A stretch of 64,000 bases of DNA from Pirellulales bacterium (GTDB lineage: Bacteria; Planctomycetota; Planctomycetia; Pirellulales; JBBDJB01): assembly GCA_040880125.1 (NCBI GenBank), contig JBBDJB010000029.1, forward strand, positions 12,188 through 76,187, given 5' to 3'. The translations under genes and the position numbers were made by a program. The notes below the pieces were generated by a model. It did not search any database. It was not told the origin of the DNA and saw only the letters and a list, made by a program, of their open reading frames with translations. Below, piece after piece: positions 2,420-43,308 of this stretch. Each line of letters starts with the position of its first letter. Position 1 is the stretch's first letter.

Positions 2420-2456
2420 CCCTCCCGTAATCGCACCTCGTTTAACACCCGGACAA

Positions 2457-3881
2457 ATGCCCCCACCAATGTCGTCTCCGTGCCCAAAGGCGTCCGAATT
2501 GAGTCCCGACGCAGAGCCCGAGGCCGTGTTTCCGCTCCCGTTGACGCCGTTCGAACGGTACTACCAACTGGATGACTCTCGCGAGTATCCCACGACTTTT
2601 CCGGTTGAGATTCGCTTCTCGGGAACGCTCGACCGCCAACACTTTGATTCCGCACTTGATTCCTCCGTACGCCGCCATCCGCTGTTGCGGGCGCGCATCG
2701 ACATCAGCTCCGGCAAACCGCGTTGGGTGCCTGTCGAGCGGACTGAGCCGGAGGTGGACTGGGATGACGAACAAGCGCCGATCATGCACGCTGGCGGAGA
2801 ATTCATCGACCTGGCCTCCGAGCCGGGGCTACGCACCTGGGTTCGCTCGGCGCCGGACCGGGCACGGGTACTGTTTCAGTTTCACCACGCTTGCTGCGAC
2901 GGACTTGCTGCGCTGGAGTTTGTAAAGGACTTTCTGGCATTGTACAAGGCTGCCAGAAGCGAGATGCCCGCGGGTTCGGAGCGAGGCGAGCCGGAATACG
3001 CGTTGCTGCTGCGACGCGGCGATTTCGTCCCCAGGCCGGCGTCGAGGCCATCGCTTGCGGTCACCCTTCGCGACACGTGGTATACGATCAAGGTCTGGTC
3101 GTGGATTCTAATCAAGAAGCCAGTTGTGTTAGCGAGTGGAGAAACAGCCCCGGTGACCGAACGCACGGAAGAGATCCTCGCCTTTGCCACCTCGACATTC
3201 TCGCAAGACGAGTCGCAGACGCTGCGCGAGCGGGCCGCTTCGTTGGGTGCACCTGTCAACGATCTGCTGCTGCGGGACTGGCTGCTCGTGCTGCGCCGCT
3301 GGAATCAGCAGCACTCTGGCACCGGCCGGGGAAGGTTTCGCATCAACGTGCCGGTTAGTGTGCGAACGCGCGACGAAGTGCGGATGCCGGCGGCCAATCG
3401 CATTGGCTACGCATTCGTCACGGACGAGGGCACGGCGGCCGACGACGCCGGATTGCTCGATGTCGTTCTCGAAGAAACGCGGCGGATTAAGCAGTGGAAG
3501 CTGGCACTGTACTTTCTCGGCGGGCTGGCCCTGGCCGGCAAATTTCCGTCGGTCATTCGCTGGGCCCTGCGGCGAAATGCGTCGCTCGCCACTGCTGTGT
3601 TGAGTAACGTCGGCCGCTTCTCGCCCGCAAGGTCGGTCAGGCGAGGGCAGAAGTGGACGTGCGGCGACCTCGTGCTAGAGCGCGTGTGTGGGGCGCCCCC
3701 AATTCGCAAACTGACGCGAGCGGCGATGATCGTTATCGAATATGCCGGCCAGACGACGTTCTGCCTGCGCTGCGATCCTCACTTCTTCAGCGCCGAACAG
3801 ACGCGTGCGCTGCTCGACGCGTACGTGGCGCAGATCAGCCAAACGGTAGATGGCAACAGCGAACCAGACCCCCAGGCGTGA
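2457..3881 (+). CDS. Stand-alone condensation-domain / CoA-dependent acyltransferase (PapA5/C-domain fold)
   Basis: Catalytic HHxxxDG (FHHACCDG), RHPLLRA, VPVSVR and C-terminal LSNVG motifs of the CAT-fold acyltransferases. Confidence 0.85.
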   Translation: MPPPMSSPCPKASELSPDAEPEAVFPLPLTPFERYYQLDDSREYPTTFPVEIRFSGTLDRQHFDSALDSSVRRHPLLRARIDISSGKPRWVPVERTEPEVDWDDEQAPIMHAGGEFIDLASEPGLRTWVRSAPDRARVLFQFHHACCDGLAALEFVKDFLALYKAARSEMPAGSERGEPEYALLLRRGDFVPRPASRPSLAVTLRDTWYTIKVWSWILIKKPVVLASGETAPVTERTEEILAFATSTFSQDESQTLRERAASLGAPVNDLLLRDWLLVLRRWNQQHSGTGRGRFRINVPVSVRTRDEVRMPAANRIGYAFVTDEGTAADDAGLLDVVLEETRRIKQWKLALYFLGGLALAGKFPSVIRWALRRNASLATAVLSNVGRFSPARSVRRGQKWTCGDLVLERVCGAPPIRKLTRAAMIVIEYAGQTTFCLRCDPHFFSAEQTRALLDAYVAQISQTVDGNSEPDPQA

Positions 3882-3890
3882 GCAGCCGTT

Positions 3891-4655
3891 TCACGCGTGT
3901 ACCGCGGCTCCGCCGTCGACTGTCAGCGTTTCACCCTGCACCAAGTCCGACAGGGCGCTGGACAAGAACAGTACACAATTTGCCACGTCGTCGGCGGTTA
4001 AGAAACGATCGCCGGTCATGCTTCGTAGCTTGCGCGAGGCGAATAATTGGTCGGCATAGGGGATGCGCCGGGTCGAGTCGGTCTCGACGAGGCCGGCCTT
4101 CACGATGTTGAGGTTTATGTCCTTGTCTCCCAACTCCAAGGCGAAATGCCGGATAAAGCTTTCCAGGGCAGCTTTCGAGCCCCCGACCGCGCCATACATC
4201 GGCAGCGCCATGTGCGAGCCGTGGCTGGAAATCGCCACAACCTTCGACCGTCCTTCGGCCCGCTGGAACAATCGCACGCTGGCTTGCACCAGGTGGATCA
4301 ACGCCATCACGTTCGTCTTCATCGTCGACTCAAAGTTCCTCTGCGTGATGGCCAGCATCGGCCGGAAGCCTCCGGTCGCGGCGTTGCTCACCAGGATATC
4401 AAGCTTGCCGAACTTCTCGTCGACGAACTCCATCATGGCGTCGATGTCATCCCGCTCGCTGATGTCCGCCTTGACGACCGCCGCATTGCGTCCCATCGCA
4501 GCGATACGCTCGGCGACTTCGTCGGCGGCCGCCTGCGAAGTGACGTAGTTGATAATCACGTCGGCGCCGGCTTCTGCCAGCCGCAACGCACAAGCACGGC
4601 CGATGCCACGAGATCCGCCAGTGACCAGGGCTTTGCGTCCACTCAAGTCGATCAT
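3891..4655 (-). CDS. Enoyl-ACP reductase, FabL-like SDR
   Basis: TGGSRGIG, NAATGGFRP and Y-x6-K (YGAVGGSK) spacing of FabI/FabL enoyl reductases, followed by AALES. Start moved to ATG 4655 (MIDLSGRK). Confidence 0.8.
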   Translation of the reverse strand: MIDLSGRKALVTGGSRGIGRACALRLAEAGADVIINYVTSQAAADEVAERIAAMGRNAAVVKADISERDDIDAMMEFVDEKFGKLDILVSNAATGGFRPMLAITQRNFESTMKTNVMALIHLVQASVRLFQRAEGRSKVVAISSHGSHMALPMYGAVGGSKAALESFIRHFALELGDKDINLNIVKAGLVETDSTRRIPYADQLFASRKLRSMTGDRFLTADDVANCVLFLSSALSDLVQGETLTVDGGAAVHA

Positions 4656-4712
4656 GCTCGTGTCTCTCGCTCGCAAAATATTAACGTAATAGATCCGAGA
4701 TATACGGGAGTC

Positions 4713-5438
4713 TCACGCCGAAGCCGCCATCAAGGGCTGAGAGCTCGCCGCGGCGCATTGGCTTGACATGCCCACCAAATCGGCCAGTGCCGCGAAGTGT
4801 CCGTCGATACGCCAGCTTTCGAGTCTCCGCACCGCCGCCGGGTCGAGGCCCGGATAGCGCGGCTCGCGCCCGGGCACAACTTCGATTCGCCCGGGGGTAA
4901 AGCCCTCGCCACACTGGGCAGCCTTGTACAAGGCCTCCTTCAGCGCCCAAATCTGTTCGACGGTTCGCAAGTGTGCCGGGCTGCTCGCCAGCCACTGCCG
5001 CTCGCGCGGGGAGAGGCTCCACTGCAGGCTCCGCACCATGACATCACCCCGGCAGACCAGGTCGACACCCAGTCTCTGCTCGGCGTCTCGCCCAAGCGCC
5101 ACCAGCACGCCCCGCGATGTGTGCGCAATCGACATCCCGACGTCTACCTTGCAGTCAGTGACATAAACAACCGGACGCTCGCCGTGTCCGAGCGTGGTCG
5201 AGCGCGTTTCGATATGAATCTCATTGGGCGTAATCTCATGTCTGCCCATTTCGTCCAGTAGCGGCAGGAGCATCCGCTTGGCCAGCACCCGGCCGCTCAC
5301 CCAGGTCAGGCGTCGCGTTTCGCAGTGCATGCGGTCACGAGCCCGGCGTTCATCGAGCGAGAGCCATCGCTCGGCCAATTGCGCGCCGTCGTCCGCAAGC
5401 TCGGATAGCCGTGCATATTGGCAGCGGATGCGCGCCAC
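4713..5438 (-). CDS. 4'-phosphopantetheinyl transferase (Sfp/HetI-type)
   Basis: SIAHT, LGVDL and WALKEALYKA motifs. Start placed at GTG 5438, just after the PKS stop, with a GGAG SD; the longer ORF overlaps the PKS. Confidence 0.88.
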   Translation of the reverse strand: MARIRCQYARLSELADDGAQLAERWLSLDERRARDRMHCETRRLTWVSGRVLAKRMLLPLLDEMGRHEITPNEIHIETRSTTLGHGERPVVYVTDCKVDVGMSIAHTSRGVLVALGRDAEQRLGVDLVCRGDVMVRSLQWSLSPRERQWLASSPAHLRTVEQIWALKEALYKAAQCGEGFTPGRIEVVPGREPRYPGLDPAAVRRLESWRIDGHFAALADLVGMSSQCAAASSQPLMAASA

Positions 5439-5440
5439 GC

Positions 5441-8400
5441 CTATCTCCCTCCCGCGCCGACGCGAATCGTGCGGTAGCCGTCGACCTGCAACAGCGGCTG
5501 CTCGTCTTCGCCGAACAATGTGAAGTCGAAGCGGCTGTGTCGCTCGCCGCGCTCGCGGAAAAAAAGACGTAGGATGCAGGTCGCTCCGGCGCGGGGCATG
5601 CGTGCCAGCCGCAGGTGCTCGAACGCGTAAGGCACCTCCAGCACGCCGCCGAACTGCAAGTACAGGAAGCTGCCGCAGGCGACGACGCAGGCGTCGAGCA
5701 CCGCCGGCGACGTTATCCAGTCGGTATCGCCGCGCGGCCCGGCCAGTTCGGACAGCGGCGGAGCGATGATCTTGCCCCAGCCGCCGTCGTATTGGTAGGC
5801 ACACTCTTTCAGGCATCGTAGCGGATCGCCATGAAAGAGCAGCCCTTCGTCCGGATAAGCGTGTGGAAACCATCCCAGCGGAGGCCGGCCGGGTGCATCG
5901 GCATGAATCGGCGAGCCGTCCGCCGTTGTGGGTATGAATCCCTCGACATGCAGCCGGGCCGGATCAATCATGCGGCCTTTGCGGTCGCGCTGCTCGGTCA
6001 GTAAGCGGCAGGCGAGGCCTCCTTCGACCGGGGCCACTTCGACACGCGCCCTGATCGGGCTATCGGTCGGAAAGAGCATGCCGTTTTCGATCCTCACGTT
6101 GCGCAGTTCGGATACTGCCCGTCTGTCCAGTGCACAAGACGCCGCTTCTGCCAGCGACTCCAGCCCGACTACGCCCGGCAGGAATGGCCGACTCTTGAGG
6201 CGGTGCTGGCTCAGAAAGGGATCGCCGAGTGGATCGAAGGCAATATCAGCGATGCCCCCACCGCCTTCGGAGGCGTGCCATGCGGCCACCAGCGGCGGAG
6301 TGCCGGAGTCTTTCTCCGAAACCTCTGCGGACGGGGCGTCGTTGCCGGTGGTAATCTCAACCTCGTAGGGATAGAACCGCCGCTGAAAGAAGCCATCGGT
6401 CACCAGCACTTCGCTGCGGGGAGTGCCGGCCCTCAACTCGTCGATTAAATGGGCCACGCCCTCGGCCGGCGAAATGAAGTCCATCTTGAAGGCGTTCTTG
6501 GTGATTCCTACGCCGTCTGCCAGCAGGGCCATGCCGACCGCGTCCCAGGTTTGCCAATGGAAACAGACGCTGTGGCATTCGGGCCGTCGGGTGCGAAACC
6601 AGCCGCAGAGCTTGGCCAGCATGTCATTGGCCGCGGCGTAGTCGCTCAGCCCGTTGCCGCCGAAGCGGCCGCTCAATGAGCCGAAGCCGACGAAGTAGCG
6701 GAGCGGATCGCCGCTGGTCAGGTGCATCAATGCGAGCGTGCCGCTGACCTTAGGGTCAATCGTGTCGCGCAGCTTGGCGGCCGCGCCGGTGCCAAAGCGA
6801 AAGCTCTTGGCGTAGCCGGCTCCGTGAATGATGCCTTCGATGGCGCCGTCCAGTTCGCGAATGGTCGTCAGCACGCGACCCAGATCGTCCCAGTCGGCCA
6901 CGTCGCAGACGTGATAAGTGGCCTCGACGCCGGCCTGGGCGAACCGGTCGAGCGATTGTTGGATTTCGCGGTCTTTGCGAACCCGGTCCCAGTCGTCGGT
7001 GGGCGATCGCCCTTCCAGCGTCGCCTTTCGCACGATCTCCGACTTGATCGCCTTGAGTTGTTCCTCAGTGCAGTTCTGCCACGGTGTATTCGGTTCCGGT
7101 GCGGGGCTCTTGCCGAGCAGATGCAGCTTGAGTCCATAGCGGCGACCGATCTCCAAGGCAGTTTCGGCCGTGATGCCGCGAGCCCCACCCGTGATGACCC
7201 ACACCCCGCCGCGCGGCAGTTCGCCCACCGGCAGCGCTTCGACCGGCTCGCGCTTTACCCGGACGACCTGGCGGCGGCCTCCGACATATGCAATTTCCAC
7301 CTCGGGCACGTCGGCGGTCAATTCTGCGCACACGGCCTCGGCCAACTCCGCCGGCGGCTCATCGGCCGGGGCATCAATTACCCTCACGTGAAAACGCGCG
7401 TGGTCGTAGCGGTCGTCCTCGACGAAGATCGACTTCAGCAGCCCCGTCAGGGCGCCGCCTTCGGGATTCGGCACGCCGGCATTGAAGCCGAAATCGCCGC
7501 CGAGGGAAATCAGGGCTACCAGTGTCGCCTGGCCTGCTTCCGGAGTCTTGCTAACGAGCTGAAACCACTTCCGCGTCACCCAGTAGGGCAGATAAACACC
7601 GCGCTCGATCCGCGCGGCCGCGGTTGAACAATCGTTCCACGCTTCGCTCGCCACATCGCGGGACGTGGCCAAAACGAGACATCGGGCCGGCGAATGTTCG
7701 AACGCCCGCTCCAACTCGGCACAGGTCGCTTCGGCGTCCGCGCCGGAGGGCAGCCGGTGTACTTGAACGCCGCGGGCAGCGAGGGTGGCGGCAAGCGACT
7801 CGGCATCGGGGTTGTCGCCCAACAAGAACGCTGACCCGGGCAGCGCTCGGGCGGGCGTGGACGCTGCCAACGGTGCGTCGAGCATGTGCATCGTCATGCG
7901 ATCGGCAACTCGCGACGCCGGCGATGCTAGCGAAGGGGATTCCGATGGTTGCGGCACTGCTGTGCCGGGGGCTCCCAACAGATCGTCGCGCTTGGCCACC
8001 TCATCGTAATTGTCCGCGTAGTACCGCTGGTGGTATTCCCAGTCGGTGACGAGCACCTCGGTGGCAGCCGGACGCGTGTACAACTCGCGGAGCAGGTGTC
8101 GCACGCCCGTCCGCTCGGGCATCAGCCGCAGGTTGCTGGCCTTGAGTATGGCCTCCGTGTCGGGTCGCGAGGCCATGCCCACCGCGTCCCAGGGGTGAAA
8201 GTGAATGCCGATCGCATGGACGTCGGGTCGCCAGCCGCGGTACCAGCCGGTGAGCTTGCAAAGCATATCGCTGGCGGCGGCGTAATCGGTCTGGCCATTG
8301 CTCCCCAGCCGGCCACTGATCGAGCCAAAGCCGATAAAATGACGTACCGGATCATCACGGGTCAGGTGCATGAGGTTGTAGGCGCCTAAAACCTTGCTGC

Positions 8401-11400
8401 CCACGGTCGCCTCGACCGTCTGGCGCGTCTTCTTCTCGAAGCGGCTGGCTTGTTCAACGCCGGCGCCGTGCAGAATCCCTTCGATGGGACCGTCGGCGCG
8501 GCGGACATCGTCGAGCACGCGCGACAGTGCCGCACGGTCGGCGACGTCGCAAGCGTGATAGGTGTATCGAACGCCCGCCACCTTGAAGCTTTGCAGGTTT
8601 CGGTCAATCTCGATGGCTTTCGCCACTTGGGCCCAAGCTTCGTTGGGTTTTTTACCGTTCTTGCGGGCATCGACGATCACGCGCGTCCGCAACTGGGCCG
8701 TTTGCTGTTCGTCGAGATTGCGCCAGTCCGAATCGATGGGCTCGGCCGGAGTGGTGCCGATCAGGTGCAGCTTCAGGCCGAAGCGGCGTGCCAACTCCAG
8801 CCCGCATCTGGCGGTGATGCCGCGAGCCCCGCCGGTGAGCACCCAGGTGCCGCCGGGACGGACGTCGCTATGGGTCTCTAGGTCAGCGTATTCCGGCAAG
8901 GCAACCTGCAGGTAGCGCCGACCGTTGACAAAGGAGAGCTCGTAATCATTCGTGCCGTACGCGAGTTCGCGACAGATATTAGTGGCCAATCGGCCGGGTG
9001 ATTCGCCACGCGGAGCATCAATGGCCTTGGCCAAAAATCCCTTTTGCTCACGCATGATGCCGTATTCGAGCAGCAGCGACTTCATCAACCCGGTCGCAAA
9101 TCCTGACTCGGGCGAAGCGACCTTTCCGGAAAATCCCAAATCGCCGCCGAGATCGAGAGTGGTGACGACGGTGCAGTCGCGAAGACGTTTGGCGTCGGCT
9201 GCCAGTTGCATTTGGCGCTGGCACAGGTAATACGGAAGCAGCACTCGCTCGCGATAGACCTGATCGAAGCCCGCCGGATCTGTGCGGTCTGTCAAAGTTT
9301 CATCGCGCAGCCCGGTGAGAAACAGATGCATGATCGGCTGTTGCTGCCAGTGGCGCTCAAGCTCGGTCACGGCCGCCTCGGGCGAGTGGGATTCCGCCAA
9401 TCGCACGACCGTGGCGCCGCCTTCGGTCAACCGCTGGCAAAGTGCGTCGGCAAGCGAGTTGCTGCCACAGACGGCCGCCGCCCCTTTGAAAGCGGGAAAG
9501 TCGGCCGGCTGCTTGTCCCACGGCATAGGAAACATCCGCAGCACAAACCGCATACTCTCGCGATCGTCGGACGAACGGTCGAGCAAGTCGTCGGAGGATG
9601 GGCTCGCCGTTGTCACTTTCGGCTCTGGCGCTAGCTGCGGGGCGGGCGTTTCCTTCGCCGTAGGTGGGGATCCGTTGCTGCCGAACGTAGCTGGGTCGCC
9701 CGCCGGCGCCGCCGGAAGCAACGCCCCGACGTGTACGCGCTGGCGAAGCGTCCCACAGTCGAGCAGCAAGTCGCCTGCGGCCGCGTCGACCACGGCGATC
9801 AGCCGCAAGGTCCCGCGCTCCGGCATGTCGGCTAATGCCTGCAGCAGTTCGCTCGCGGTTTGGGGTGAATCAGAGGCGGTAAGCCGCTGCCGGAGCCAGT
9901 CGAAACGTTCAAGCGATGCTGCCGGCGCGGGTACTGACGCGGTGTGCAGCACGCAATGATTTGTGGCTACGACCGGCCCGGCCGCGTCTTGCTCCGCCAG
10001 GTGTTGGCCGTCGTGCTCGGCCGCACAGAGGCGGCGTTGCGCTTGATGGCTTAAGCACGTCGTCCAACCGCGAGACGTCTTTACGCCTCGTAGGCTGCTG
10101 GCGGCGCGTTCAAGCGTGTCGCTGCGCTGCAGCAGGCCGTCGATGCGCATCGTGGTGGGGTGCGATGCGGAACCGTTCGAGCCGGCGGCGGAATTGAGGA
10201 GTGCGCCGGTCGACGCTGCCAGGCCGTTGGCATTAAGACCCACCAGGCTGCCGACCAGTCCGGCGAAAGTAACCGTGGCACATGCCCACCCCTGGGCTGG
10301 CTCCCGTACGAGCACGAAGGGCGTGAGCACTTCGGTCAGGGCGGCCGGCAATGAGAGCTCACCGACCAAGCCGTGCAAGACGCCCGCGGATGATGCACCC
10401 GGGAGCAGTGCCACCTGAGCGATCCCGGCGGCGAAGTCGCTCTGCACGGTCAGGTTGAGCGCGGCCAGATTGCCCGCCGGCACTTCCAACGCATCGGCCA
10501 ATCCGCGTAGCTCATCCCATTGATCGGTGGTAAAGAAAACCTGAGGGTTGGACCGGGCCTCGGTCGGCAGCGGCAATTCGCCCCAGTCGCCGTCCGTCAG
10601 GTCAGCGACTCGCCGGAGGAGAAGTTGGATCTCCGTTTTTTTTTCCAACCCGTGCTGTCGCCCCATCTCATACGGGGTGCCGCGCACGTGCAGGATATCC
10701 ACTTTTGTCGCGACGCATTCCGCCGTGGCGGCAGCAGTCATTCCAGCAGCACTACTTACCGCGGGCGGTGCAGTCGCGGGGCCAGGCGCCGCGGGCTCGG
10801 AAGCGGCAGGCGTTTGCGTCGGCGCGGCAGTGTCCTTTTGCGGAACTTTGGCCAGGAACTCTACGATGTGGCGCAGCGTGGGAAAATCATCGAGCGTCAG
10901 GTCGTCGGTGGGCGTGACGTCGAAATACTCCTGCAACTCACCGAACATCTGGGCCTTCTTGATGCTGTCGATGCCCAGGTCTGCTTCCAGGTCGGCGTCG
11001 AGCTCGACCACTTCAGCCGGGTAGCCGGTTTGCTCGACGACAAAGTTGATCAAGAACTGTTCGAGCTCGGCAACGTCAACGCCAGAGGCAGCGGGTGAAG
11101 CCGCTTCGGGCGGAGCCGTAGACTGTGGCGACGCAACCGAGGTGGGAGCCGGTACAGCCGCGGTCAGCGGTGCCGATGTAGCAGTCGGTGCAGGTGCTGC
11201 GGCGGGTTCCGGCTGGGGTGCTGCGCCGGACGGTGCTGGGGTGGACGTAGCAGCGCCCTTTTGCGGAACTTTTGCCAGGAACTCCACGATGTGGCGCAGC
11301 GTGGGAAAATCATCGAGCGTCAGGTCGTCGGTGGGCGTGACGTCGAAATACTCTTGCAACTCGCCGAACATCTGAGCCTTCTTGATGCTGTCGATGCCCA

Positions 11401-14400
11401 GGTCTGCTTCCAGGTCGGCGCCCAGCTCGACCACTTCGGGCGGATAGCCGGTCTGCTCGACGACAAAGTTGATCAAGAACTTTTCCAGTTCAGCCAGGTT
11501 CACCGCGCTGGAAGCTGCCGGTTTGGACGGATCGGCCACCGCAGCCGGAGCCGCGACTGCTGGAGCCGAGGATGCCGGAGCGGGGGCAGGTGCTGGCGCT
11601 GGCGCCGGGACTGCTGGTGCCGCGCGATCGATTGCCGCTTGCGCGGGCGCGGTAACTCCGGCGCTTCGACCAGACGGCACGCCCGGCTGCCCATTGCGTC
11701 CGGAACTCTGCCGCATCTTTGCCCGGCGGCGGGCCGTGGCATCAAAGTGCCAAATCTCACCACGCTCCACCGGTGTGACGGCCGCCGGCGCCAGCACCGA
11801 AGTCGTACTCCTCTGCCGATCCATCGCGCCGCTGCACTCCAGCAGCGCTTGCACGCGCATGATTTGCTCGACGCCCGGCCGCGAGGGATTATCGCAGGCG
11901 ATCCCCGCATACTCATGGGCCGCCAAATTACGGCGGTTGAGGCGGCTGAGAGCCTGTTGAGGGCCGACCTCGACGAAGACGGTCGGACCCTGGGCCGCCA
12001 AGTCTCGCACCAGTTCGGCGTAGCGTACCGGTGTCGTCAAGTGGGCCACCAGGTTGCGACCGATTTCGCTTGGATCGCGGATGACCCGGTTCGTCGCCAC
12101 GCTGTACGTGGTCACGCGGGGAGCTTGAAACCTCTCAGCGGCGATCTGCTGTGCGAACCGCGCGGCGGCGTTGGCCATCAAGGGTGTATGGAACGGGCTG
12201 GGTACCGGCAGCATGCGGGTCTCGTACATGCCTACTTGCAACATCTTCTCCAGCTCAGCGAGCGCCGGCAGCGTGCCGCCGACGACCGTCTGGTCGGGGG
12301 CGTTGTGATTGGCCACGAAGACCGGCCCGGCGACGCGTGGCGCCATCTGCTCGATCACTTCCGGCGTGGCGGTGGTAGCCAGCATTCCTCCTTGTCCGCC
12401 CGGGAAAGCCGTGATCGATTCGCACCGATGTCGTGTCACCCGGATCGCTTGCTCCAGATCCCAAGCTCCGGCAGCCAACAGCGCGGGATACTCGCCGTAG
12501 CTGTGACCGGCCACCAGATCGGGCGTGATGCCGTGCTCTTCGAGCGCCGCAGCCACCAGCACATCGGCCAGCAACATCGAAACCTGGGTGATCCATACAT
12601 CCTTGCCCAAGGGCGAAGCTTCGTCCCAGGCCAACTGCGCCCAGCCGGGATAGCCAAGCCGTATCATCACGGAATCGATCTGCGCCTGCCGAGCACGTAC
12701 CGCCGGCACTTCATCCACCAGTTGGCGAAGCATGCCGGTGTATTGCGAGCCCTGGCCGGGGAAGAGGTATGCGATTCGCGTGTCAGGATTGGCCTGGCGG
12801 TAGAAAACGCCTTGCTGCTCAAGCACGGTTTGGGCCGCGGCGTTGTCCATTTGTTTCAGCGCCAGACCGAGTTTCGTCGAAAGCGCCTCTGAGCTATCGA
12901 CTACGATCGCCAGGCGGAAGCGGTCTTCGGACGAGAAACGGCGCCGGCTGGAGGCGTCCAGTGTGCCGGTGTCCGATTGTGCTGCTTCGATTGCCCGCCG
13001 CAGTGCAGCGGCGTCTGCACCGCCGAAGCGGCAGATTCGCCATGTACCCGACATTCGGCCTTCAGAAGTAGCCGCCGATTGAGTCGCCGGCGGAAAAGAA
13101 GGAGCTGCGGCGGCGGCTGTGGGCGCGGGCATGGATGCCGCGGGAGCCGGCGTAGGTGACGAAGCTTGCGCAGATGCAGCGGCCGGTATAGGCGCGGGTG
13201 CGGCGGGTTCTGGCGTGGGCGAGGCGGTTCCCTTCTGCGGGGCCTTCGCCAGAAACTCGACGATATGACGCAGCGTGGGAAAGTCGTCGAGCGTCAGGTC
13301 GTCGGTCGGCGTGACATCGAAATACTCTTGCAGCTCGCCGAACATTTGGGCTTTCTTGATGCTATCGATGCCCAAGTCTGCTTCCAAGTCAGCGTCCAAC
13401 TCGACGACTTCCGGCGGGTAACCGGTCTGCTCGACGACGAAGTTGATCAAGAACTGTTCGAGCTCGGCCAAGTCGACGTTCGCAGGCGCAGGCTGCGCAG
13501 CCGGCGCGGGGTGGGTGGCCGGGGCCAACGCGGCTTCAGACTGCGAAGGAGCCGGTACGGCAGTGGCGGAAGCGGGTGCTTGAGCCGGCGCGGCCGATTC
13601 CCTTTGGGGAACCTTCGCGAGGAACTCCACGATGTGGCGCAACGTGGGAAAGTCATCGAGCGTCAGGTCGTCGGTCGGCGTGACGTCAAAGTATTCTTGC
13701 AGCTCACCGAACATCTGAGCTTTCTTGATGCTGTCGATCCCCAGGTCGGCTTCCAGGTCGGCATCGAGCTCGATCACTTCCGGCGGATAACCGGTTTGCT
13801 CGACGACGAAGTTAACAAGGAACTGTTCCAGCTCGCCCACATTCACACTTATCGCGGCGGCATTGGACGCCAGGGCCGGCGAAGCAGAAGCCGCCGAGGG
13901 AGAAGCCTCCACTTGGGGCGCTGGAGCCGGGGTGGGAGCGGCGCTTGCGACTCGGCTGCCGTACTCGAGAACCGCATGATAGGCCAGCCCACGTGAACAG
14001 GTTCCCACGGCGGCCAGGCGCCGGCCGTCGGCGGTGGTGAGCTCGATGGCCGTCCTCGCCGCCGGCGCCGCCAGCACGTTACCGTGCTCAGTGACAAAGG
14101 GAGCGGCTGCCTTCAGTCCGACCGCGGGCGGCAACTCGCCGTGACTGACCTCCAGCACGGCTTTGAGCAGTGAGACCAGCGACGAGGCCCCCTGCGTGTT
14201 GCCGAGTTGGCCAAGAATTGAACTGAGCAGCAAAGGCCGCGGGCGGCCACCTTTGCCGTACACTTCGGCCACGGCGCGCACCTCTTGTGCCGTGGCGTTG
14301 TTGTCGCCCAGCGCGTCCAGCTCCATAAGCGCCACGTCTGCGGGGCGAGTGGCTCCGTCGCTAAAGGTCCGCTGCATGGCCAGCTCTAGTGCGTGGCCCC

Positions 14401-16804
14401 AGGACGTGGAGTCGTGCGCCGCGCCAACTCCCCGCAGCACGGCGTGGATTCGATCGCCGTCGCGCTTGGCGTCGGCCAGCCGCTTAAGCAGAAAGACGAC
14501 GACGCCTTCGCCCGGCACGTGGCCTTGCGCATGCGCGTCCAGCGGCGAACGTGCGTCGCCCTCAGCCAAGTCGCCGCCGATGGCGAGGCTCTCGTAAATC
14601 GGCCAGCCCATACGGCGCTGGCCCGCGGCGCAGGCCATCAGATCGCAATCGCCGGCCAAGAGCATGTCGATGCTCGTCGAGAGCGCGGCCAGCCCCGAAG
14701 TCTGCCCGGCGTCGATGGCCGCGGCGCCGCCCATCGTGTTCCAGGTCTTGCCGATTCGCGATGCCAGCGAACTGGTGCTGAAGCTGCCAGTTTCGTCGAT
14801 CAGTGCGGGCCAGCGCTTGAGCAAAGCTTCGGCGTAGTTCTTGCCGACCTGGCGGGCCTGTTCCACACTAAAGCCGCGTCGAGTCAACAACGCCTCGAGG
14901 TGGCGCTCCAGCTCGGGCAAACGCAACCCGATCTGCAATTGGAAGGAGAAATCGCCGCCGAACTCCGTGCCCACGACGACGCCCATATTCTCGCGTGGGA
15001 AGGACCTTTCGTGATAGCCGGCGTCCTGCATCGCCTGGTCGGTCGCCTCGAGCAGCATGAACTGCAGGGGATCGGCCTGCTGCACCTGCTTGGGCGGCAC
15101 TTTGTGTCGCTTCCAGTCGTACTCGAAGTTGGCGATGAATGCTCCGCGGAGCGACTTCGGATCGGGAGCGCCCGGCTGAGGCGTTTTCAGCACGATGTCC
15201 GGCCGCCAGCGCTCCGGCGGCACCGGCGTCTTGGGATCGGTGCCGGAGGCCAGCAGGTTCCAGAATGCGGCGGGATTCTCCGCTCCCGGCAGAACGCACC
15301 CCAGCCCGATCACAGCAATGGCCTGCTCCTCGCTGGAGAGCTTTTGCTCCGGCGGACCGGGGACGGCGGCCGCCAGGTCGCGGCTCGACTCAGTGAACTC
15401 ATCGATCACTACATGCATATTGAGCCCGCCGATGCCGAACGCATTGACGCCCGCCCTGCGCGGCTTGCCGTCGGCCCGTTTAGGCCAGGCGACCGGCGTA
15501 GTGGGCACGTAAACCGGCGCCCGTTCCCAATCGATGTTGGGATTGAACTGGCGGATGTTGATCGCCGGCGGCACGATCTCGTTGTTCAGGGCCAGCACGG
15601 ACTTGATCACCCCGGCGATGCCGGCCGTTTCGAGCGAGTGGCCGATGTTCGCTTTGACGCTGGTGATCGGAATTCGCTTGCCGGGCGGCAAGCGCTGCCC
15701 GAGGATCTCGGTCAGCGTGTTCAGTTCCGTGGCGTCGCCTAGCTTGGTGGCCGTTGCATGGGCCTCGACATACTCCAAATCGGCGATATCCAGCCCGTCG
15801 CGGTAGGCACGTTCCATCGCCTTGAGCTGGCCTTCCTTGCGCGGAGCCCAGAGACTCTTCCCTTTGCCGTCGGATGAGACGCCCAGCCCGCGGACAACGG
15901 CCAGCACACGGTCGCCGTCGTCCAGAGCGCGCTTGAGCGTCTTCATGACCAGCGCCACGTAACCTTCGCCGCAGACCAGCCCGTCGGCATCGGCGTCGAA
16001 GGGACGTGTGCCGGTGGCGCTCATCGCGCGGGCGTTCGAGAACAGCACCAGCGAGTCGCTCTTGCAGTCCGATGCCCCGCCGACGATGGCCATGTCGACA
16101 CGGCCCAGTTGAAGAGCCCGGGCCCCCAGCAACATTGCCTGTAAGGACGAAGCACAGGCGGAGTTGATCGCCAGGTACGGTCCATTGAGGCCGAAAGCTT
16201 TGCTGATTGTGCCGGCCACGAGACTGGCGGAGACGTCCGGGGCATCGGCCGTGGGGCGCGGCAACGGTTCGCGCACACGCTGGATAAGCTCGGCGATGAT
16301 CGCCTGTTGTTCGGCTTCGGGCAGCGCGGCGAAATCCGGCACGTCGCGGAGGAACTCGGCGGCCTCCGTGATACAGCTCGAGTAGGTGTGGTCGCCGGCC
16401 TTGGTGCTGCCTTGGGCATGGCCCACGTAGACGCCGGTATTGGGCAGCGGCACGTTGAAAGGATCGATGCCGGCGTGCCGCAGGGCGGAGGCGGCCACGT
16501 CGCACATTAGCAAGTGAGCGATGTCCACCCGTTCCGCCAGCTTTTCATCAATGGGGCAGCGCGTGCGGTCGAACGTGCGGCTGGAGATGATTGCCCCCAG
16601 CTTTGAGTAGGTCTTACCACGTACGCCGACTTTGGGATCGAAGTACATGTCCTGGTCGAGCCGATCCGGTGGCAGCTCCACGACGGCGCTGCGCCCTTCG
16701 ACGAGCATCCGCCAGTACTGATCCAGATCGTCTGCCCCGGGAAGGCGGCAGGCCATTCCTACGATGGCCACAGGAACTTGGTGCGGAAGGTAGGGGTCGG
16801 CCAT
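5441..16804 (-). CDS. Pfa/Hgl-like iterative type I PKS, 3787 aa: KS-KS(Q)/CLF-ACP-ACP-AT-ACP-ACP-C45-like-KR-KR-DH
   Basis: KS1 intact triad (NSACASS, EAHATAT, NIGHSLE). KS2 DAGQTS with both His lost. AT FPGQGSQ/GHSYG/SPFH. Four LGIDSIK ACPs. Two TGGARGI...YAAA KRs. DH DPFLSQHRLKSRPFLPG...DAC. Confidence 0.95.
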   Translation of the reverse strand: MADPYLPHQVPVAIVGMACRLPGADDLDQYWRMLVEGRSAVVELPPDRLDQDMYFDPKVGVRGKTYSKLGAIISSRTFDRTRCPIDEKLAERVDIAHLLMCDVAASALRHAGIDPFNVPLPNTGVYVGHAQGSTKAGDHTYSSCITEAAEFLRDVPDFAALPEAEQQAIIAELIQRVREPLPRPTADAPDVSASLVAGTISKAFGLNGPYLAINSACASSLQAMLLGARALQLGRVDMAIVGGASDCKSDSLVLFSNARAMSATGTRPFDADADGLVCGEGYVALVMKTLKRALDDGDRVLAVVRGLGVSSDGKGKSLWAPRKEGQLKAMERAYRDGLDIADLEYVEAHATATKLGDATELNTLTEILGQRLPPGKRIPITSVKANIGHSLETAGIAGVIKSVLALNNEIVPPAINIRQFNPNIDWERAPVYVPTTPVAWPKRADGKPRRAGVNAFGIGGLNMHVVIDEFTESSRDLAAAVPGPPEQKLSSEEQAIAVIGLGCVLPGAENPAAFWNLLASGTDPKTPVPPERWRPDIVLKTPQPGAPDPKSLRGAFIANFEYDWKRHKVPPKQVQQADPLQFMLLEATDQAMQDAGYHERSFPRENMGVVVGTEFGGDFSFQLQIGLRLPELERHLEALLTRRGFSVEQARQVGKNYAEALLKRWPALIDETGSFSTSSLASRIGKTWNTMGGAAAIDAGQTSGLAALSTSIDMLLAGDCDLMACAAGQRRMGWPIYESLAIGGDLAEGDARSPLDAHAQGHVPGEGVVVFLLKRLADAKRDGDRIHAVLRGVGAAHDSTSWGHALELAMQRTFSDGATRPADVALMELDALGDNNATAQEVRAVAEVYGKGGRPRPLLLSSILGQLGNTQGASSLVSLLKAVLEVSHGELPPAVGLKAAAPFVTEHGNVLAAPAARTAIELTTADGRRLAAVGTCSRGLAYHAVLEYGSRVASAAPTPAPAPQVEASPSAASASPALASNAAAISVNVGELEQFLVNFVVEQTGYPPEVIELDADLEADLGIDSIKKAQMFGELQEYFDVTPTDDLTLDDFPTLRHIVEFLAKVPQRESAAPAQAPASATAVPAPSQSEAALAPATHPAPAAQPAPANVDLAELEQFLINFVVEQTGYPPEVVELDADLEADLGIDSIKKAQMFGELQEYFDVTPTDDLTLDDFPTLRHIVEFLAKAPQKGTASPTPEPAAPAPIPAAASAQASSPTPAPAASMPAPTAAAAAPSFPPATQSAATSEGRMSGTWRICRFGGADAAALRRAIEAAQSDTGTLDASSRRRFSSEDRFRLAIVVDSSEALSTKLGLALKQMDNAAAQTVLEQQGVFYRQANPDTRIAYLFPGQGSQYTGMLRQLVDEVPAVRARQAQIDSVMIRLGYPGWAQLAWDEASPLGKDVWITQVSMLLADVLVAAALEEHGITPDLVAGHSYGEYPALLAAGAWDLEQAIRVTRHRCESITAFPGGQGGMLATTATPEVIEQMAPRVAGPVFVANHNAPDQTVVGGTLPALAELEKMLQVGMYETRMLPVPSPFHTPLMANAAARFAQQIAAERFQAPRVTTYSVATNRVIRDPSEIGRNLVAHLTTPVRYAELVRDLAAQGPTVFVEVGPQQALSRLNRRNLAAHEYAGIACDNPSRPGVEQIMRVQALLECSGAMDRQRSTTSVLAPAAVTPVERGEIWHFDATARRRAKMRQSSGRNGQPGVPSGRSAGVTAPAQAAIDRAAPAVPAPAPAPAPAPASSAPAVAAPAAVADPSKPAASSAVNLAELEKFLINFVVEQTGYPPEVVELGADLEADLGIDSIKKAQMFGELQEYFDVTPTDDLTLDDFPTLRHIVEFLAKVPQKGAATSTPAPSGAAPQPEPAAAPAPTATSAPLTAAVPAPTSVASPQSTAPPEAASPAASGVDVAELEQFLINFVVEQTGYPAEVVELDADLEADLGIDSIKKAQMFGELQEYFDVTPTDDLTLDDFPTLRHIVEFLAKVPQKDTAAPTQTPAASEPAAPGPATAPPAVSSAAGMTAAATAECVATKVDILHVRGTPYEMGRQHGLEKKTEIQLLLRRVADLTDGDWGELPLPTEARSNPQVFFTTDQWDELRGLADALEVPAGNLAALNLTVQSDFAAGIAQVALLPGASSAGVLHGLVGELSLPAALTEVLTPFVLVREPAQGWACATVTFAGLVGSLVGLNANGLAASTGALLNSAAGSNGSASHPTTMRIDGLLQRSDTLERAASSLRGVKTSRGWTTCLSHQAQRRLCAAEHDGQHLAEQDAAGPVVATNHCVLHTASVPAPAASLERFDWLRQRLTASDSPQTASELLQALADMPERGTLRLIAVVDAAAGDLLLDCGTLRQRVHVGALLPAAPAGDPATFGSNGSPPTAKETPAPQLAPEPKVTTASPSSDDLLDRSSDDRESMRFVLRMFPMPWDKQPADFPAFKGAAAVCGSNSLADALCQRLTEGGATVVRLAESHSPEAAVTELERHWQQQPIMHLFLTGLRDETLTDRTDPAGFDQVYRERVLLPYYLCQRQMQLAADAKRLRDCTVVTTLDLGGDLGFSGKVASPESGFATGLMKSLLLEYGIMREQKGFLAKAIDAPRGESPGRLATNICRELAYGTNDYELSFVNGRRYLQVALPEYADLETHSDVRPGGTWVLTGGARGITARCGLELARRFGLKLHLIGTTPAEPIDSDWRNLDEQQTAQLRTRVIVDARKNGKKPNEAWAQVAKAIEIDRNLQSFKVAGVRYTYHACDVADRAALSRVLDDVRRADGPIEGILHGAGVEQASRFEKKTRQTVEATVGSKVLGAYNLMHLTRDDPVRHFIGFGSISGRLGSNGQTDYAAASDMLCKLTGWYRGWRPDVHAIGIHFHPWDAVGMASRPDTEAILKASNLRLMPERTGVRHLLRELYTRPAATEVLVTDWEYHQRYYADNYDEVAKRDDLLGAPGTAVPQPSESPSLASPASRVADRMTMHMLDAPLAASTPARALPGSAFLLGDNPDAESLAATLAARGVQVHRLPSGADAEATCAELERAFEHSPARCLVLATSRDVASEAWNDCSTAAARIERGVYLPYWVTRKWFQLVSKTPEAGQATLVALISLGGDFGFNAGVPNPEGGALTGLLKSIFVEDDRYDHARFHVRVIDAPADEPPAELAEAVCAELTADVPEVEIAYVGGRRQVVRVKREPVEALPVGELPRGGVWVITGGARGITAETALEIGRRYGLKLHLLGKSPAPEPNTPWQNCTEEQLKAIKSEIVRKATLEGRSPTDDWDRVRKDREIQQSLDRFAQAGVEATYHVCDVADWDDLGRVLTTIRELDGAIEGIIHGAGYAKSFRFGTGAAAKLRDTIDPKVSGTLALMHLTSGDPLRYFVGFGSLSGRFGGNGLSDYAAANDMLAKLCGWFRTRRPECHSVCFHWQTWDAVGMALLADGVGITKNAFKMDFISPAEGVAHLIDELRAGTPRSEVLVTDGFFQRRFYPYEVEITTGNDAPSAEVSEKDSGTPPLVAAWHASEGGGGIADIAFDPLGDPFLSQHRLKSRPFLPGVVGLESLAEAASCALDRRAVSELRNVRIENGMLFPTDSPIRARVEVAPVEGGLACRLLTEQRDRKGRMIDPARLHVEGFIPTTADGSPIHADAPGRPPLGWFPHAYPDEGLLFHGDPLRCLKECAYQYDGGWGKIIAPPLSELAGPRGDTDWITSPAVLDACVVACGSFLYLQFGGVLEVPYAFEHLRLARMPRAGATCILRLFFRERGERHSRFDFTLFGEDEQPLLQVDGYRTIRVGAGGR
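10841..13834 (-). repeat. Four near-identical 228-bp ACP-coding repeats (13607-13834, 13238-13465, 11264-11491, 10841-11068)
   Basis: ELE(Q/K)FL(V/I)NFVVEQTGYP(P/A)EV(I/V)EL(D/G)ADLEADLGIDSIKKAQMFGELQEYFDVTPTDDLTLDDFPTLRHIVEFLAK(V/A)P occurs four times, separated by Pro/Ala-rich linkers. Confidence 0.95.
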
Positions 16805-16993: not shown

Positions 16994-18457
16994 CTAATTT
17001 ATTGCATGCGTTGCTACTCGGTCGCCCATTTGACCGGAAACGACTTTCTCGAAAGCACCTAAGAACTGTTCTAGGCGGCGGCCCTCCTGGTGTACAACAA
17101 GCCGGCCCGAATTGATCGCTGCCTCAACGGACATCTCGCCCCGGGCGAGCTTCGCAAAGGTACGGGCGGAAAGATAGAAGCCACCAGCCGTACCCGACGG
17201 CAAGCCCCACTCGACGCCCGATAGTTCCCCCCCGGAGATGTGCAACTGCCACTGTCCCCCGCCGGGTCCGTTCACCTGCAGGGCGATCGCTTCGCCGGCC
17301 GAGCCTTCCTGCAACGACAGTCCATCAATATGGGCCGCCACATCGAACTCTACCGCCGGCGCTTCATGCCGCGGCGGCATGAAGTTCCGCTCTACCGGGT
17401 AGCGCGACACTCGCAGCAATACGTCGTACGTCATCTTCGGGCACGGCAGGTGCGGAAGCGCCGCCCGAGTGTTGGTCAGGTCGAACTTGGGATCGTCGCG
17501 CCAGTGCGAACGATAGATCGACATGTACTCGTAGAACAACGCTTCTAGCTTGGACAGTTCGGCCTCGGAGACCGAAGTGGCCAAGGGGCGGGGATAGTAG
17601 CGCTCGATCGCGTCGCGGATCACATGTTGAATCTCTGCGATCGGCACCGGATCTGGCGAGGCCAGATGATAGGTCTGGCCGTGATGCTGGGCGTGCGTCA
17701 CCAGTTCGACAATGGCCGCCGAAAGCCAATCGACGGGCACCAGATTCTTGCCTTCGTGCCCTTGCAGGCCGAGCTTGGCGAAGAATCGCTCGTTCATCTC
17801 CTTCACCGGCACGCGGCCCGCGATGGTATAGGCCAACTGAAGCGGAAGGTAGAACCCGTGGAAGTTGGTGACGTAGCCGCTGTGGGAGTCCCCCAGCACG
17901 CTGGCTGGACGGTAGAACGTACGCTGGTCGAGAAAGTCGGCCGCGCGGATCATCTTTTCGGCTTCGAGCTTGCTCTTTTCGTAGACGTTTCCTAGCGACT
18001 GGCCAACGTCGACGTCGGACTCGAGGATCTGGCCCTGGCGAAGCCCGCAAATGTAGGCCGTGGAGACATGATGATATTGGCGGATACCCGCCGTCTGGCA
18101 AAGCCGCAACAGGTTGCGCGTGCCGTCCACGTTCGTGCGAAACGGCTCACCCCGCTTGTCCTCGCGGAAGGTCATGCTTGCCGCACAGCTCAAGATGGTG
18201 CCGCAGTGCTTTGCCAACCAGCGGCGCTGCTCGGCATCGGGGACGACGTCGTCTAAGCACAAGTCGCCTTCGATGATGACGGGGCGAGGTAATGCCCGGC
18301 CGGCTTGCTGCTCCCAGTGACCCAAAATTCCGGCGAGCGTTGCGGGCCCTTTGCCGGGGCGAACCATCGCCGCGACCGGAACGTCGGCCGCCAGCAGATC
18401 ACGCAGCAGATAACGTCCCACGAGGCCCGTGGCGCCTGTCAGAAGGAGGTAGCTCAT
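16994..18457 (-). CDS. Thioester reductase (extended SDR, R/TD domain) with C-terminal SCP2-like domain
   Basis: LLTGATGLVG, NVDGTRN, HVSTAY, YEKSK, RPASVLG, LVPVDW. C-terminal LQVNGPGGGQWQLHI...TFAKLARGEMSVEAAINSGRLVV is SCP2-like. Start ATG 18457 with GGAG SD. Confidence 0.85.
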   Translation of the reverse strand: MSYLLLTGATGLVGRYLLRDLLAADVPVAAMVRPGKGPATLAGILGHWEQQAGRALPRPVIIEGDLCLDDVVPDAEQRRWLAKHCGTILSCAASMTFREDKRGEPFRTNVDGTRNLLRLCQTAGIRQYHHVSTAYICGLRQGQILESDVDVGQSLGNVYEKSKLEAEKMIRAADFLDQRTFYRPASVLGDSHSGYVTNFHGFYLPLQLAYTIAGRVPVKEMNERFFAKLGLQGHEGKNLVPVDWLSAAIVELVTHAQHHGQTYHLASPDPVPIAEIQHVIRDAIERYYPRPLATSVSEAELSKLEALFYEYMSIYRSHWRDDPKFDLTNTRAALPHLPCPKMTYDVLLRVSRYPVERNFMPPRHEAPAVEFDVAAHIDGLSLQEGSAGEAIALQVNGPGGGQWQLHISGGELSGVEWGLPSGTAGGFYLSARTFAKLARGEMSVEAAINSGRLVVHQEGRRLEQFLGAFEKVVSGQMGDRVATHAIN

Positions 18458-18538
18458 GCGGCAGTCTCTTCTCCGGGGGCACCGCTTCCAACCCAGGAAG
18501 CTGCCGCTCTTTGCGCGGGTCAAGTGGCGTGGGTATCG

Positions 18539-25196: not shown

Positions 25197-25200
<4 letters not shown>
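22690..25200 (-). CDS. ABC transporter permease, duplicated FtsX/MacB-like
   Basis: Two repeats of TM + periplasmic domain + 3 TM, with ERRHDLAVLRVLGA and EQTRELGLLRIIGM motifs. Confidence 0.9.
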
Positions 25201-25922
<722 letters not shown>

Positions 25923-26150
25923 CAAAGGCTTCCGAGAGTGCCGTGTGCGACGTATGGCGGGGGGCGATCACACGCAAATCCCGACGGTTGCCTGCCACGC
26001 GGCAGCCCGTGGAGGATCAGGTCTCGCGGGGCGCGCAAGTTACCGCAGATTTCCTAAATTGCCAATCATACATTAAAATCCTGGCTTGGCGATGGGCCGG
26101 TCATGTGACCAACGCCCCCGATTCCATTCCCGTTTGCCCCCGCGCTGAGC

Positions 26151-28016: not shown

Positions 28017-28029
28017 CGACAGGTAGACG

Positions 28030-43200: not shown

Positions 43201-43308
43201 CTAGGCTTCGGAATCTTGTTCGCCACCGCAATCATCCTGGTGCTGGTACCGTGCATGTACCTCATCCTGGAAGACGCCCGGCGGAGTGCCTTGGCAACAC
43301 GTGACTAG
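40201..43308 (+). CDS. RND efflux inner-membrane transporter (AcrB/AcrD/AcrF family)
   Basis: [27 protein letters not shown]. Start placed at TTG 40201, overlapping the MFP stop (TTGA), with GGAG SD. Confidence 0.93.

Follow-up and report, generated by a model that had tools for sequence, protein, structure and literature searches.

A single-chain polyketide synthase resembling polyunsaturated fatty acid synthases, with an embedded Ntn-hydrolase-fold domain, in a Pirellulales bacterium

Can one open reading frame hold an entire iterative lipid synthase, and what would such an enzyme make? The question is raised by a protein of 3,787 amino acids (P0001) encoded in a 64,000-nucleotide stretch of contig JBBDJB010000029.1 from a Pirellulales bacterium (assembly GCA_040880125.1); this whole stretch is called the window below. 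An earlier note on this DNA had described the protein as a polyketide synthase (PKS) of non-canonical domain order in which a whole pathway is condensed into one chain. Our analysis indicates that P0001 is real and intact and is probably a single-chain iterative synthase of the polyunsaturated fatty acid (PUFA) or 'secondary lipid' type, with a product that is probably released as an aldehyde, aminated and then acylated. This reading is built on what was observed here, namely the domain order, the status of the active sites, the folds, the membership of a family and a conserved gene neighbourhood.

P0001 was scanned against Pfam and NCBIfam as a whole and then as nine consecutive segments. The scans gave the order KS-CLF-ACP2-AT-ACP2-C45-like-KR-KR-DH, where KS is ketosynthase, CLF chain-length factor, ACP acyl carrier protein, AT acyltransferase, KR ketoreductase and DH dehydratase. 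The single polypeptide and its unusual order were therefore read correctly from the letters, with domain limits off by tens of bases, and by about 100 at the start of the AT (Table 1). In the whole-protein Pfam scan, ketoacyl-synt (3.9e-97), Ketoacyl-synt_C (2.8e-45) and KR (5.2e-57) each matched two stretches and PP-binding (1.9e-39) four, together with matches to Acyl_transf_1 (1.2e-32), PS-DH (3.5e-07) and PKS_DH_N (5e-06). The order of a modular type I PKS, KS-AT-(DH-KR)-ACP with one ACP per module, was not found. The best curated NCBIfam profile was that of PfaA (TIGR02813), which scored 987.4 bits and did not reach its cut-off of 1010.1; models for Pks2 and Pks13 were also among the NCBIfam matches.

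The frame is free of internal stops, and orthologous open frames of 3,753-3,814 amino acids are present in three other genomes (G059, G089 and G140). The two ACP pairs were considered as a possible assembly artefact. The four ACP DNA copies (300 nt) are 76-81% identical to the reference copy, and the ACP2-AT-ACP2 arrangement recurs in the same three genomes. Because the copies have diverged and the layout recurs, an assembly error was ruled out.

The first KS is catalytically complete. It contains C217, H349 and H389, which are kept in 115, 116 and 116, respectively, of 116 family KS domains. When the second KS-like domain was aligned to the first (25% identity), the Cys was found replaced by Gln (Q701, within DAGQTSG), the two His by Asp (D830) and Asn (N869), and the Lys by Leu (L864). 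The earlier claims of a single complete KS and of a Gln in the active site of the second one are confirmed by these residues. Among 119 family CLFs the Cys position is occupied by Glu (30), Asp (27), Ser (21), Ala (13), Gln (6), His (5) and others, and in none by Cys; the domain is therefore regarded as a dead partner of the chain-length-factor type. Judging from the same alignment, the Gln of the window CLF is incidental and does not correspond to the Gln that is conserved in type II CLFs or in KSQ loaders. A KSQ-type decarboxylating loader was rejected as an identity for this domain, as both His are missing and the Gln is not conserved in the family, and decarboxylative priming of that kind is unlikely because both His have been lost.

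Residues 180-726 of P0001 align by phmmer, in a single stretch, to the crystal structure of the PfaC KS-CLF didomain (6RIW, 4e-78). An AlphaFold2 (AF2) model of residues 1-960, built from an alignment of 11 sequences, has a pLDDT of 69.9 and a pTM of 0.78. Its best PDB match is again 6RIW (TMq 0.71, TMt 0.73, 994 columns), and the remaining PDB matches listed reach a TMq of at most 0.39 and cover one half each. Such a model had been proposed as a check in the earlier note, and the didomain does superpose on its PfaC counterpart. Intramolecular pairing of KS and CLF is supported by this match. That part of the note's 'intramolecular type II-like KS-CLF pair' stands; the type II likeness does not, as the pair is PfaC-like and only 6 of the 119 CLFs have Gln. 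By these matches, the nearest relative of the pair is PfaC and not a type II PKS. What P0001 has in common with the KS-alpha/CLF of type II PKSs is a condensing subunit with an inactive homologue, and the Gln at the Cys position of the window CLF; it differs in that both halves are fused in one open reading frame with the AT, ACPs, KRs and DH.

All four ACPs that the note had assigned to the KS-CLF pair are present, each with the DSI serine within LGIDSIK, and they are about 90% identical to one another. The AT has GHSYG at residue 1433. KR1 and KR2 each contain the NADPH motif TGGARGIT and the residues K, S and Y, and both are apparently competent. They share about 40% identity, which suggests an old tandem duplication as the origin of the pair. 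In the DH, H3534 lies in HRLKSRPFLP, which fits the HxxxSxxxxP motif, and D3704 is the candidate Asp. The DH is of the PS type only: the Pfam FabA model scored no better than E = 0.1 (12.7 bits) on P0001, and no FabA-type DH/isomerase is present.

These results bear on whether P0001 is a genuine PUFA synthase making membrane polyunsaturated fatty acids or olefin precursors. The likeness to PfaA/PfaC of the pfaABCDE systems is considerable: PfaA is the top model, the fused KS-CLF didomain is of the PfaC-like fold and is predicted to be arranged as in 6RIW, the ACPs are tandem and carry LGIDSIK, the ACPn-KR-DH block is as in PfaA, and the cluster contains an Sfp-type phosphopantetheinyl transferase (PPTase). 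However, the PfaA score lies under the cut-off, there is no FabA-type DH/isomerase, and the source genome of the window (91% complete) gave no match to the PfaD family of enoyl reductases (ER; TIGR02814). P0001 has one active KS, whereas Pfa systems have two, the second in the KS-MAT of PfaA. The synthase occupies a single chain, with ACPs before as well as after the AT and with a second KR and an Ntn-fold domain as insertions, and genes for reductive release (a thioester reductase, TR, in this cluster) and amination are conserved alongside. A true PUFA synthase was rejected on the PfaA score and the missing FabA-type DH and PfaD, and we give it next to no probability.

Between the second ACP pair and KR1 lies a segment that the note had called C45-like. 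The C45_proenzyme model NF040521 matches residues 2041-2328 with 83.4 bits, below its cut-off of 85, and a Pfam scan of the segment returned no match, including to PF03417. Sequence searches of the PDB with the segment find isopenicillin-N acyltransferase (IAT), at 5.3e-07 with a 10-sequence profile, and the two have in common the motifs GTPYEMGxQHG, ELRGIA and GLNxxG. An AF2 model from a 10-sequence alignment (pLDDT 85.8, pTM 0.85) has the fold of an N-terminal nucleophile (Ntn) hydrolase. Its top Foldseek match is IAT (2x1c, E = 9.4e-16, TMq 0.70), followed by the lipid amidases acid ceramidase (TMq 0.69-0.74) and NAAA. The Ntn-hydrolase fold is thus real and common to IAT (peptidase family C45), acid ceramidase and NAAA. 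The domain differs from the IAT/C45 enzymes in being embedded in a megasynthase, in having no Gly-Cys self-cleavage site and in scoring below the NCBIfam cut-off.

An alignment of the 91 family members having this segment was used to locate the active site. The scaffold is strongly conserved, with G2042, G2048, E2098, G2182 and N2191 each in 91 of 91 sequences and R2167 in 90. The nucleophile position was assigned to Ile2128, since the G-C-T-Q-F-A motif of the family resembles the G-C-T-T-A-Y of IAT and since Ile2128 directly precedes the first core strand (95-99) of the model. In this column the 91 relatives have Cys (32), Ser (22), Ala (16), Gly (11), Thr (4) and Met (4), among others, and the close orthologues of P0001 have Ala, Ser or Cys, so the residue is not conserved. 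All 12 KR-DH-DH proteins retain G-C-T-Q-F-A, as do 12 of 22 with the layout KS-CLF-AT-(ACPn)-C45-KR1-DH; among the two-KR proteins, which include that of the window, the count is only 6 of 49. The Gly-Cys self-cleavage site of the C45 type is therefore lost in P0001, where the nucleophile Cys is replaced by Ile2128.

The assignment carries some uncertainty. The 10-sequence profile is vague at the nucleophile position, and a single-sequence phmmer alignment placed Cys103 of IAT opposite A2137, nine residues from I2128, which counts against our placement. Ntn catalysis requires Cys, Ser or Thr at the new N-terminus, and by their side chains neither Ile2128 nor Ala2137 would serve as a nucleophile. 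With no nucleophile at either position, the domain was read as a conserved non-catalytic Ntn module, most likely one that is either lipid-binding or structural. It is very improbable that the domain is an off-loading catalyst in P0001 too, using another residue as nucleophile and passing the chain to an amine. In its favour, P0001 retains the Ntn fold with most of the scaffold residues, and the closest folds are an acyltransferase and lipid amidases; against it, Ile2128 stands where Cys, Ser or Thr is needed, the column varies among close orthologues, and the TR and a PapA5-like enzyme already cover release and transfer.

No C45 domain within a PKS is described in the literature covered (full text, with supplementary tables outside the scope). 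A bolder and rather doubtful proposal is that the embedded C45 domain is an undescribed kind of PKS domain. Relatives that keep the Cys would self-cleave between the ACPs and the KR, and the new N-terminal Cys would catalyse acyl transfer or release on a lipid chain. In the two-KR clade this chemistry would have passed to the TR, the aminotransferase and the PapA5-like enzyme, leaving a ceramidase-like lipid-binding pseudoenzyme that measures or holds the chain, and many Pirellulales would make, as its product, amino or amide lipids of a new class.

The architecture, called non-canonical in the earlier note, is not singular. A full-length search returned 931 proteins at E <= 0.001 among 2,150 candidates scored. 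For the architecture count, the window domain segments were mapped by BLASTP onto the best 120 matches plus the query (n = 121). A KS-CLF start was found in 115 of these 121 proteins and the C45-like segment in 93; two KRs occur in 64 and a single KR in 56, 12 proteins carry a second DH, and at least one ACP was detected in 109. ACPs lie between CLF and AT in 17, and the exact domain string of the window occurs in 7. In a within-family, unrooted FastTree of the KS domains, the two-KR proteins form one clade of 64 rows (support 99), and the window protein falls in a clade of 10 rows (support 98), every member of which has ACPs before the AT. By these counts, the ACP pair before the AT is the sole subgroup-specific part of the architecture.

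By collinear full-length homology and a common gene neighbourhood, P0001 belongs to a large and widespread family of Pirellulales (Planctomycetota) with the layout KS-CLF-AT-ACPn-(C45)-KR(-KR)-DH, which is apparently uncharacterised. Its members come from Blastopirellula, Bremerella, Bythopirellula, Maioricimonas and metagenome-assembled genomes of Pirellulales, and of 151 genomes sampled from the same order as the window, 54 had a match at 1e-20 to an 886-aa query covering the C45-KR1 part. The labels they bear are generic ('type I polyketide synthase', 'SDR family oxidoreductase', 'C45 family autoproteolytic acyltransferase/hydrolase'). The note had named an already characterised enzyme of this architecture as a refutation; none turned up in the literature covered (full text, with the supplementary cluster lists of PMC3098273 and PMC13291983 outside the scope). 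Among the types A-T of Shulse & Allen, a planctomycete appears in the available part of the text (PMC3098273) only under types I and J, which have other layouts. Planctomycetes have 0 occurrences in the available part of a 2026 survey of hybrid PUFA-like clusters, and planctomycete genome papers and reviews, in the parts available, merely count 'type I PKS' clusters.

Table 1. Features of the PKS locus in the window, with the domain limits given in the earlier note
Feature	Position	Strand	Details	Earlier note
P0001, iterative PUFA-synthase-like type I PKS (probable), single ORF	5441..16804	-	3,787 aa	
KS, catalytically complete	15380..16774	-	residues 11-475; Pfam 4.4e-56 + 2.2e-32	15400-16780
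CLF, KS-like, inactive	13955..15322	-	residues ~495-950; Pfam 3.7e-42	13960-15325
ACP1	13616..13840	-	Ser1025 in LGIDSIK	
ACP2	13247..13471	-	Ser1148	
AT	11927..12769	-	residues 1346-1626; Pfam 2e-34; FabD TIGR00128 2.2e-52	11830-12785
ACP3	11273..11497	-	Ser1806	
ACP4	10850..11074	-	Ser1947	
C45-like Ntn-hydrolase-fold domain	9785..10702	-	residues 2041-2328, NF040521	9710-10705
KR1 didomain	8045..9547	-	catalytic part 8186-8851, residues 2652-2873; Pfam KR 1.2e-29	8040-9560
KR2 didomain	6455..7927	-	catalytic part 6542-7207, residues ~3200-3421; Pfam KR 2.1e-29	6395-7910
PS-type DH	5444..6307	-	residues 3523-3785; Pfam PS-DH 1.7e-08, PKS_DH_N 3.6e-07	5444-6300
ABC exporter, fused transmembrane and nucleotide-binding domains (TMD-NBD)	530..2419	+		
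Stand-alone condensation / PapA5 / WS-DGAT-like acyltransferase	2457..3881	+	HHACCDG at residue 143	
FabL-like short-chain dehydrogenase/reductase (SDR), candidate trans-acting enoyl reductase	3891..4676	-	Y161-x6-K168	
Sfp-type PPTase	4713..5438	-	Pfam ACPS 4.2e-10	
TR	16994..18523	-	GATGLVG, Y181-x3-K185; NAD_binding_4 3.8e-35; TIGR01746 3.4e-26	
Metallo-beta-lactamase (MBL)-fold hydrolase, YtnP-lactonase-like	18634..19482	-		
AMP-dependent acyl ligase	19581..21044	-	best NCBIfam model: long-chain fatty-acid-CoA ligase	
Class III aminotransferase, HemL/GntE-like	21047..22402	-	Aminotran_3 4.9e-61	
MacB-type permease	22690..25200	-		
ABC ATPase	25197..25925	-		
Two conserved proteins	26151..30165	+	621 + 711 aa	

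The gene neighbourhood supplies the functions that P0001 itself is without. Nine co-directional genes run from 25925 to 3891 (ABC ATPase, MacB permease, class III aminotransferase, AMP-ligase, MBL hydrolase, TR, PKS, PPTase and SDR), and a condensation-family (C-domain) protein and an ABC exporter converge on them from the opposite side. Enoyl reduction, release, amination, acyl transfer and phosphopantetheinylation are thus assigned to conserved neighbours, and the note's claim that the whole pathway is condensed into one chain has to be given up.

The PPTase has a probable GTG start 2 nt past the PKS stop, with GGAGG ahead of it, and alignments to its homologues are confined to the C-terminal ~55-58% of the long open reading frame. 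For the SDR, FabL is the best NCBIfam model (256.4 bits, cut-off 328), and the top PDB match is FabL 3OIC at 180 bits, the next one scoring 124; from these matches it is likely a trans-acting enoyl reductase. The stand-alone acyltransferase matches the Pfam models Condensation (5e-13) and WS/DGAT (1.2e-11), with PapA5 (8s6l, 3.2e-08 over ~150 residues) as its best solved relative. The aminotransferase scored 372 bits against the HemL subfamily and 325.6 bits against GntE, each below its cut-off; both of these nearest curated families act on aldehydes. The true start of the TR is probably Met23. The C-terminal 115 residues of the TR (16997-17341, minus strand) gave weak matches to lipid carriers, all below their cut-offs (SCP2 E = 0.0049, SCP2_2 E = 0.012, Alkyl_sulf_C E = 0.22).

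Conservation of this set was assessed in the stretches fetched from 10 other genomes and then from four more distant relatives (14 in total). Despite a shuffled gene order, the first 10 genomes have, beside the PKS, the FabL-like SDR in 10, the TR and the C-domain protein in 9 each, and the aminotransferase-AMP-ligase pair and the MBL protein in 8 each. The SDR adjoins the PKS in 13 of all 14. In G022 the PKS is flanked by TR, SDR and C-domain genes and in G131 by TR and C-domain genes, and TR and SDR are present in G082 and G050. The MacB permease/ABC ATPase pair also adjoins the cluster in G059, G089, G140 and G075. Next to this pair, at the same place in G059, G089 and G140, are the 621- and 711-aa proteins, which matched nothing in Pfam or NCBIfam, even with the threshold relaxed to E <= 1. 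On this sample, the family core is made up of PKS, TR and FabL-like SDR, in most cases joined by the PapA5-like enzyme, and amination is an add-on of the window's branch.

Taken with the domains of P0001, these neighbours suggest a route, for which we infer the iterative mode, the role of each trans-acting enzyme and the product chemistry. The malonyl-type AT would charge the four tandem ACPs, two before it and two behind, and the single KS, held and gauged by the CLF, would extend the chain iteratively. KR1, KR2, the DH and the FabL-like reductase may set the reduction pattern over the repeated rounds, and with two KRs some hydroxyls could be dehydrated and others retained, which is also the proposal for zeamine in the available part of PMC5811116. 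Once complete, the chain would be released from the ACP by the TR in the form of an aldehyde, which the HemL/GntE-like aminotransferase would convert to a primary amine. The PapA5-like HHxxxDG acyltransferase could then join the amine to another acyl group, which would be carried by an ACP or activated by the AMP-ligase, and the ABC and MacB systems would export the resulting long-chain amino or amide lipid. PapA5 itself accepts acyl chains from a PKS. We can only guess that the AMP-ligase loads the starter or activates the acyl partner, and that the MBL protein is an editing hydrolase.

Besides the alternative placement of the C45 nucleophile, several points weigh against this reading. Iterative use is deduced from the CLF, the tandem ACPs and the likeness to PfaA and PfaC. 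In the KS-CLF model, 215 of the 960 residues have a pLDDT below 50. The FabL-like protein could be a ketoreductase, as its score is below the FabL cut-off. The aminotransferase, AMP-ligase and MBL genes were not found in the fetched stretches of 6 of the 14 genomes (G108, G051, G022, G131, G082 and G050), which is why the amine step was placed outside the family core. In the papers searched, a product is assigned to no member of the family.

The AMP-ligase and the PapA5-like protein could also be seen as parts of a non-iterative or few-round extender, in which the ligase loads a preformed fatty acid, one to three units are added and the product is released reductively, a scheme resembling that of the mycobacterial lipid PKSs. 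The presence of the ligase, with a long-chain fatty-acid-CoA ligase as its best model, agrees with this, as do the PapA5-like partner, reminiscent of the Mas/PapA5 system, and the Pks2 and Pks13 models among the NCBIfam matches. However, a CLF and one to five tandem ACPs (at least one in 109 of the 121 proteins) are hallmarks of iterative Pfa-type systems, the ligase is missing beside many relatives, and the best profile is PfaA. We therefore consider a few-round extender rather unlikely. The mycobacterial Mas/PapA5 pair is alike in that an HHxxxDG acyltransferase from the condensation superfamily is found beside an iterative type I PKS; it differs in its PKS architecture, the similarity of the acyltransferase to PapA5 is low, and the acceptor here is probably an amine.

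In its set of functions, the iterative synthase proposed here most resembles the heterocyst glycolipid and zeamine systems, both of which are multi-protein. In the heterocyst glycolipid system (hgl; 'Type F' of Shulse & Allen 2011), hglC is likewise KS-CLF-AT according to the available text of PMC3098273, and the cluster, as given in the available text of PMC11804610, comprises KS, AT, ACP, KR, DH, ER, thioester reductase and PPTase. The hgl product is a reduced long-chain alcohol. The antiSMASH class 'hglE-KS' is reported for planctomycete genomes in the part of PMC13190842 available. The hgl system differs in that its functions are spread over many proteins, and the window cluster has no glycosyltransferase but adds an aminotransferase, a PapA5-like acyltransferase and the C45-like domain.

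The second system is that of zeamine and fabclavine (Zmn10-14 and Zmn19). In the available text of PMC5811116, a PUFA-like iterative synthase with an extra KR is followed by TR release of an aldehyde, transamination, acylation of the amine by a stand-alone condensation enzyme and ABC export. This raises the possibility that P0001 belongs to a zeamine-like polyamine synthase, whose aminotransferase would act repeatedly on the beta-ketoacyl-ACP as well as on the final aldehyde and yield a polyamino-alkyl chain. Each function has its counterpart among Zmn10-14 and Zmn19: PUFA-like synthase, second KR, DH, ER, aminotransferase, TR, condensation enzyme and ABC export. By the same source, however, Zmn10-12 are separate PfaA, PfaC and PfaD homologues, the aminotransferase is a domain of the PfaD-like ER protein, and a non-ribosomal peptide synthetase (NRPS)-PKS supplies the acyl partner. 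That set was not found at the window, where the ER is FabL-like and the aminotransferase is free, HemL/GntE-like and nearest to aldehyde-acting families; nor does the window hold an NRPS or NRPS-PKS partner. Together with the missing aminotransferase in 6 of the 14 genomes, these differences make a polyamine product unlikely, and we retain an iterative synthase with a single amination of the released aldehyde as the probable reading.

The traits that set P0001 apart are the fusion of the KS-CLF pair to the rest of the synthase, the ACPs on both sides of the AT and the embedded Ntn-hydrolase-fold domain without its nucleophile. Planctomycetes are rich in 'type I PKS' clusters, and the P0001 family adds to them a widespread Pirellulales branch of PUFA-like synthases and a testable route by which these bacteria may make a long-chain alcohol, amine or amide lipid. 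As a compact single-gene iterative synthase, P0001 could suit heterologous expression, and the family, with its Cys kept or lost, offers a natural series for probing the role of an Ntn domain in a PKS.

Related arrangements were met during the searches. The KS-CLF didomain occurs in many shorter planctomycete architectures; in P0232, P0237 and P0241 it is fused to an ACP and a class I/II aminotransferase, or to a KR or TR alone, and one such KS-CLF/ACP/aminotransferase fusion, from Stieleria maiorica, is labelled 8-amino-7-oxononanoate synthase. The didomain seems to be a reusable module in Planctomycetota. A split form was found in G082 (contig C401, 1-15147), with one gene for KS-CLF-ACP3, a second for KS-CLF-AT-KR-KR-DH that has no C45 segment, and the TR and FabL-like SDR between them. 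A protein from a eukaryotic set (P0098, eukprot g8383.t1) has the order ACP-ACP-KS-CLF-AT-C45-KR-DH plus reductase Pfam domains and could result from contamination or gene transfer.

Other KS genes of the source genome are on other contigs. A smaller PKS-like gene at ~17700-21800 on contig C25 of this genome (G000) has KS, AT and KR matches with 25-32% identity to the window domains. On contig C53 of G000 (1817-9119), a GT1 glycosyltransferase, a DegT-type sugar aminotransferase and a GT2 lie between paralogues of the TR (38% identity) and the PapA5-like protein (34%), in what looks like a glycolipid-tailoring set. Elsewhere in the window, an RND efflux set (OEP, HlyD, AcrB) is encoded at 37542-43308 (plus strand), and the planctomycete signature genes PSCyt1/PSCyt2/PSD1 fused to Laminin_G_3, together with DUF1501, at 45251-50774 (plus strand).

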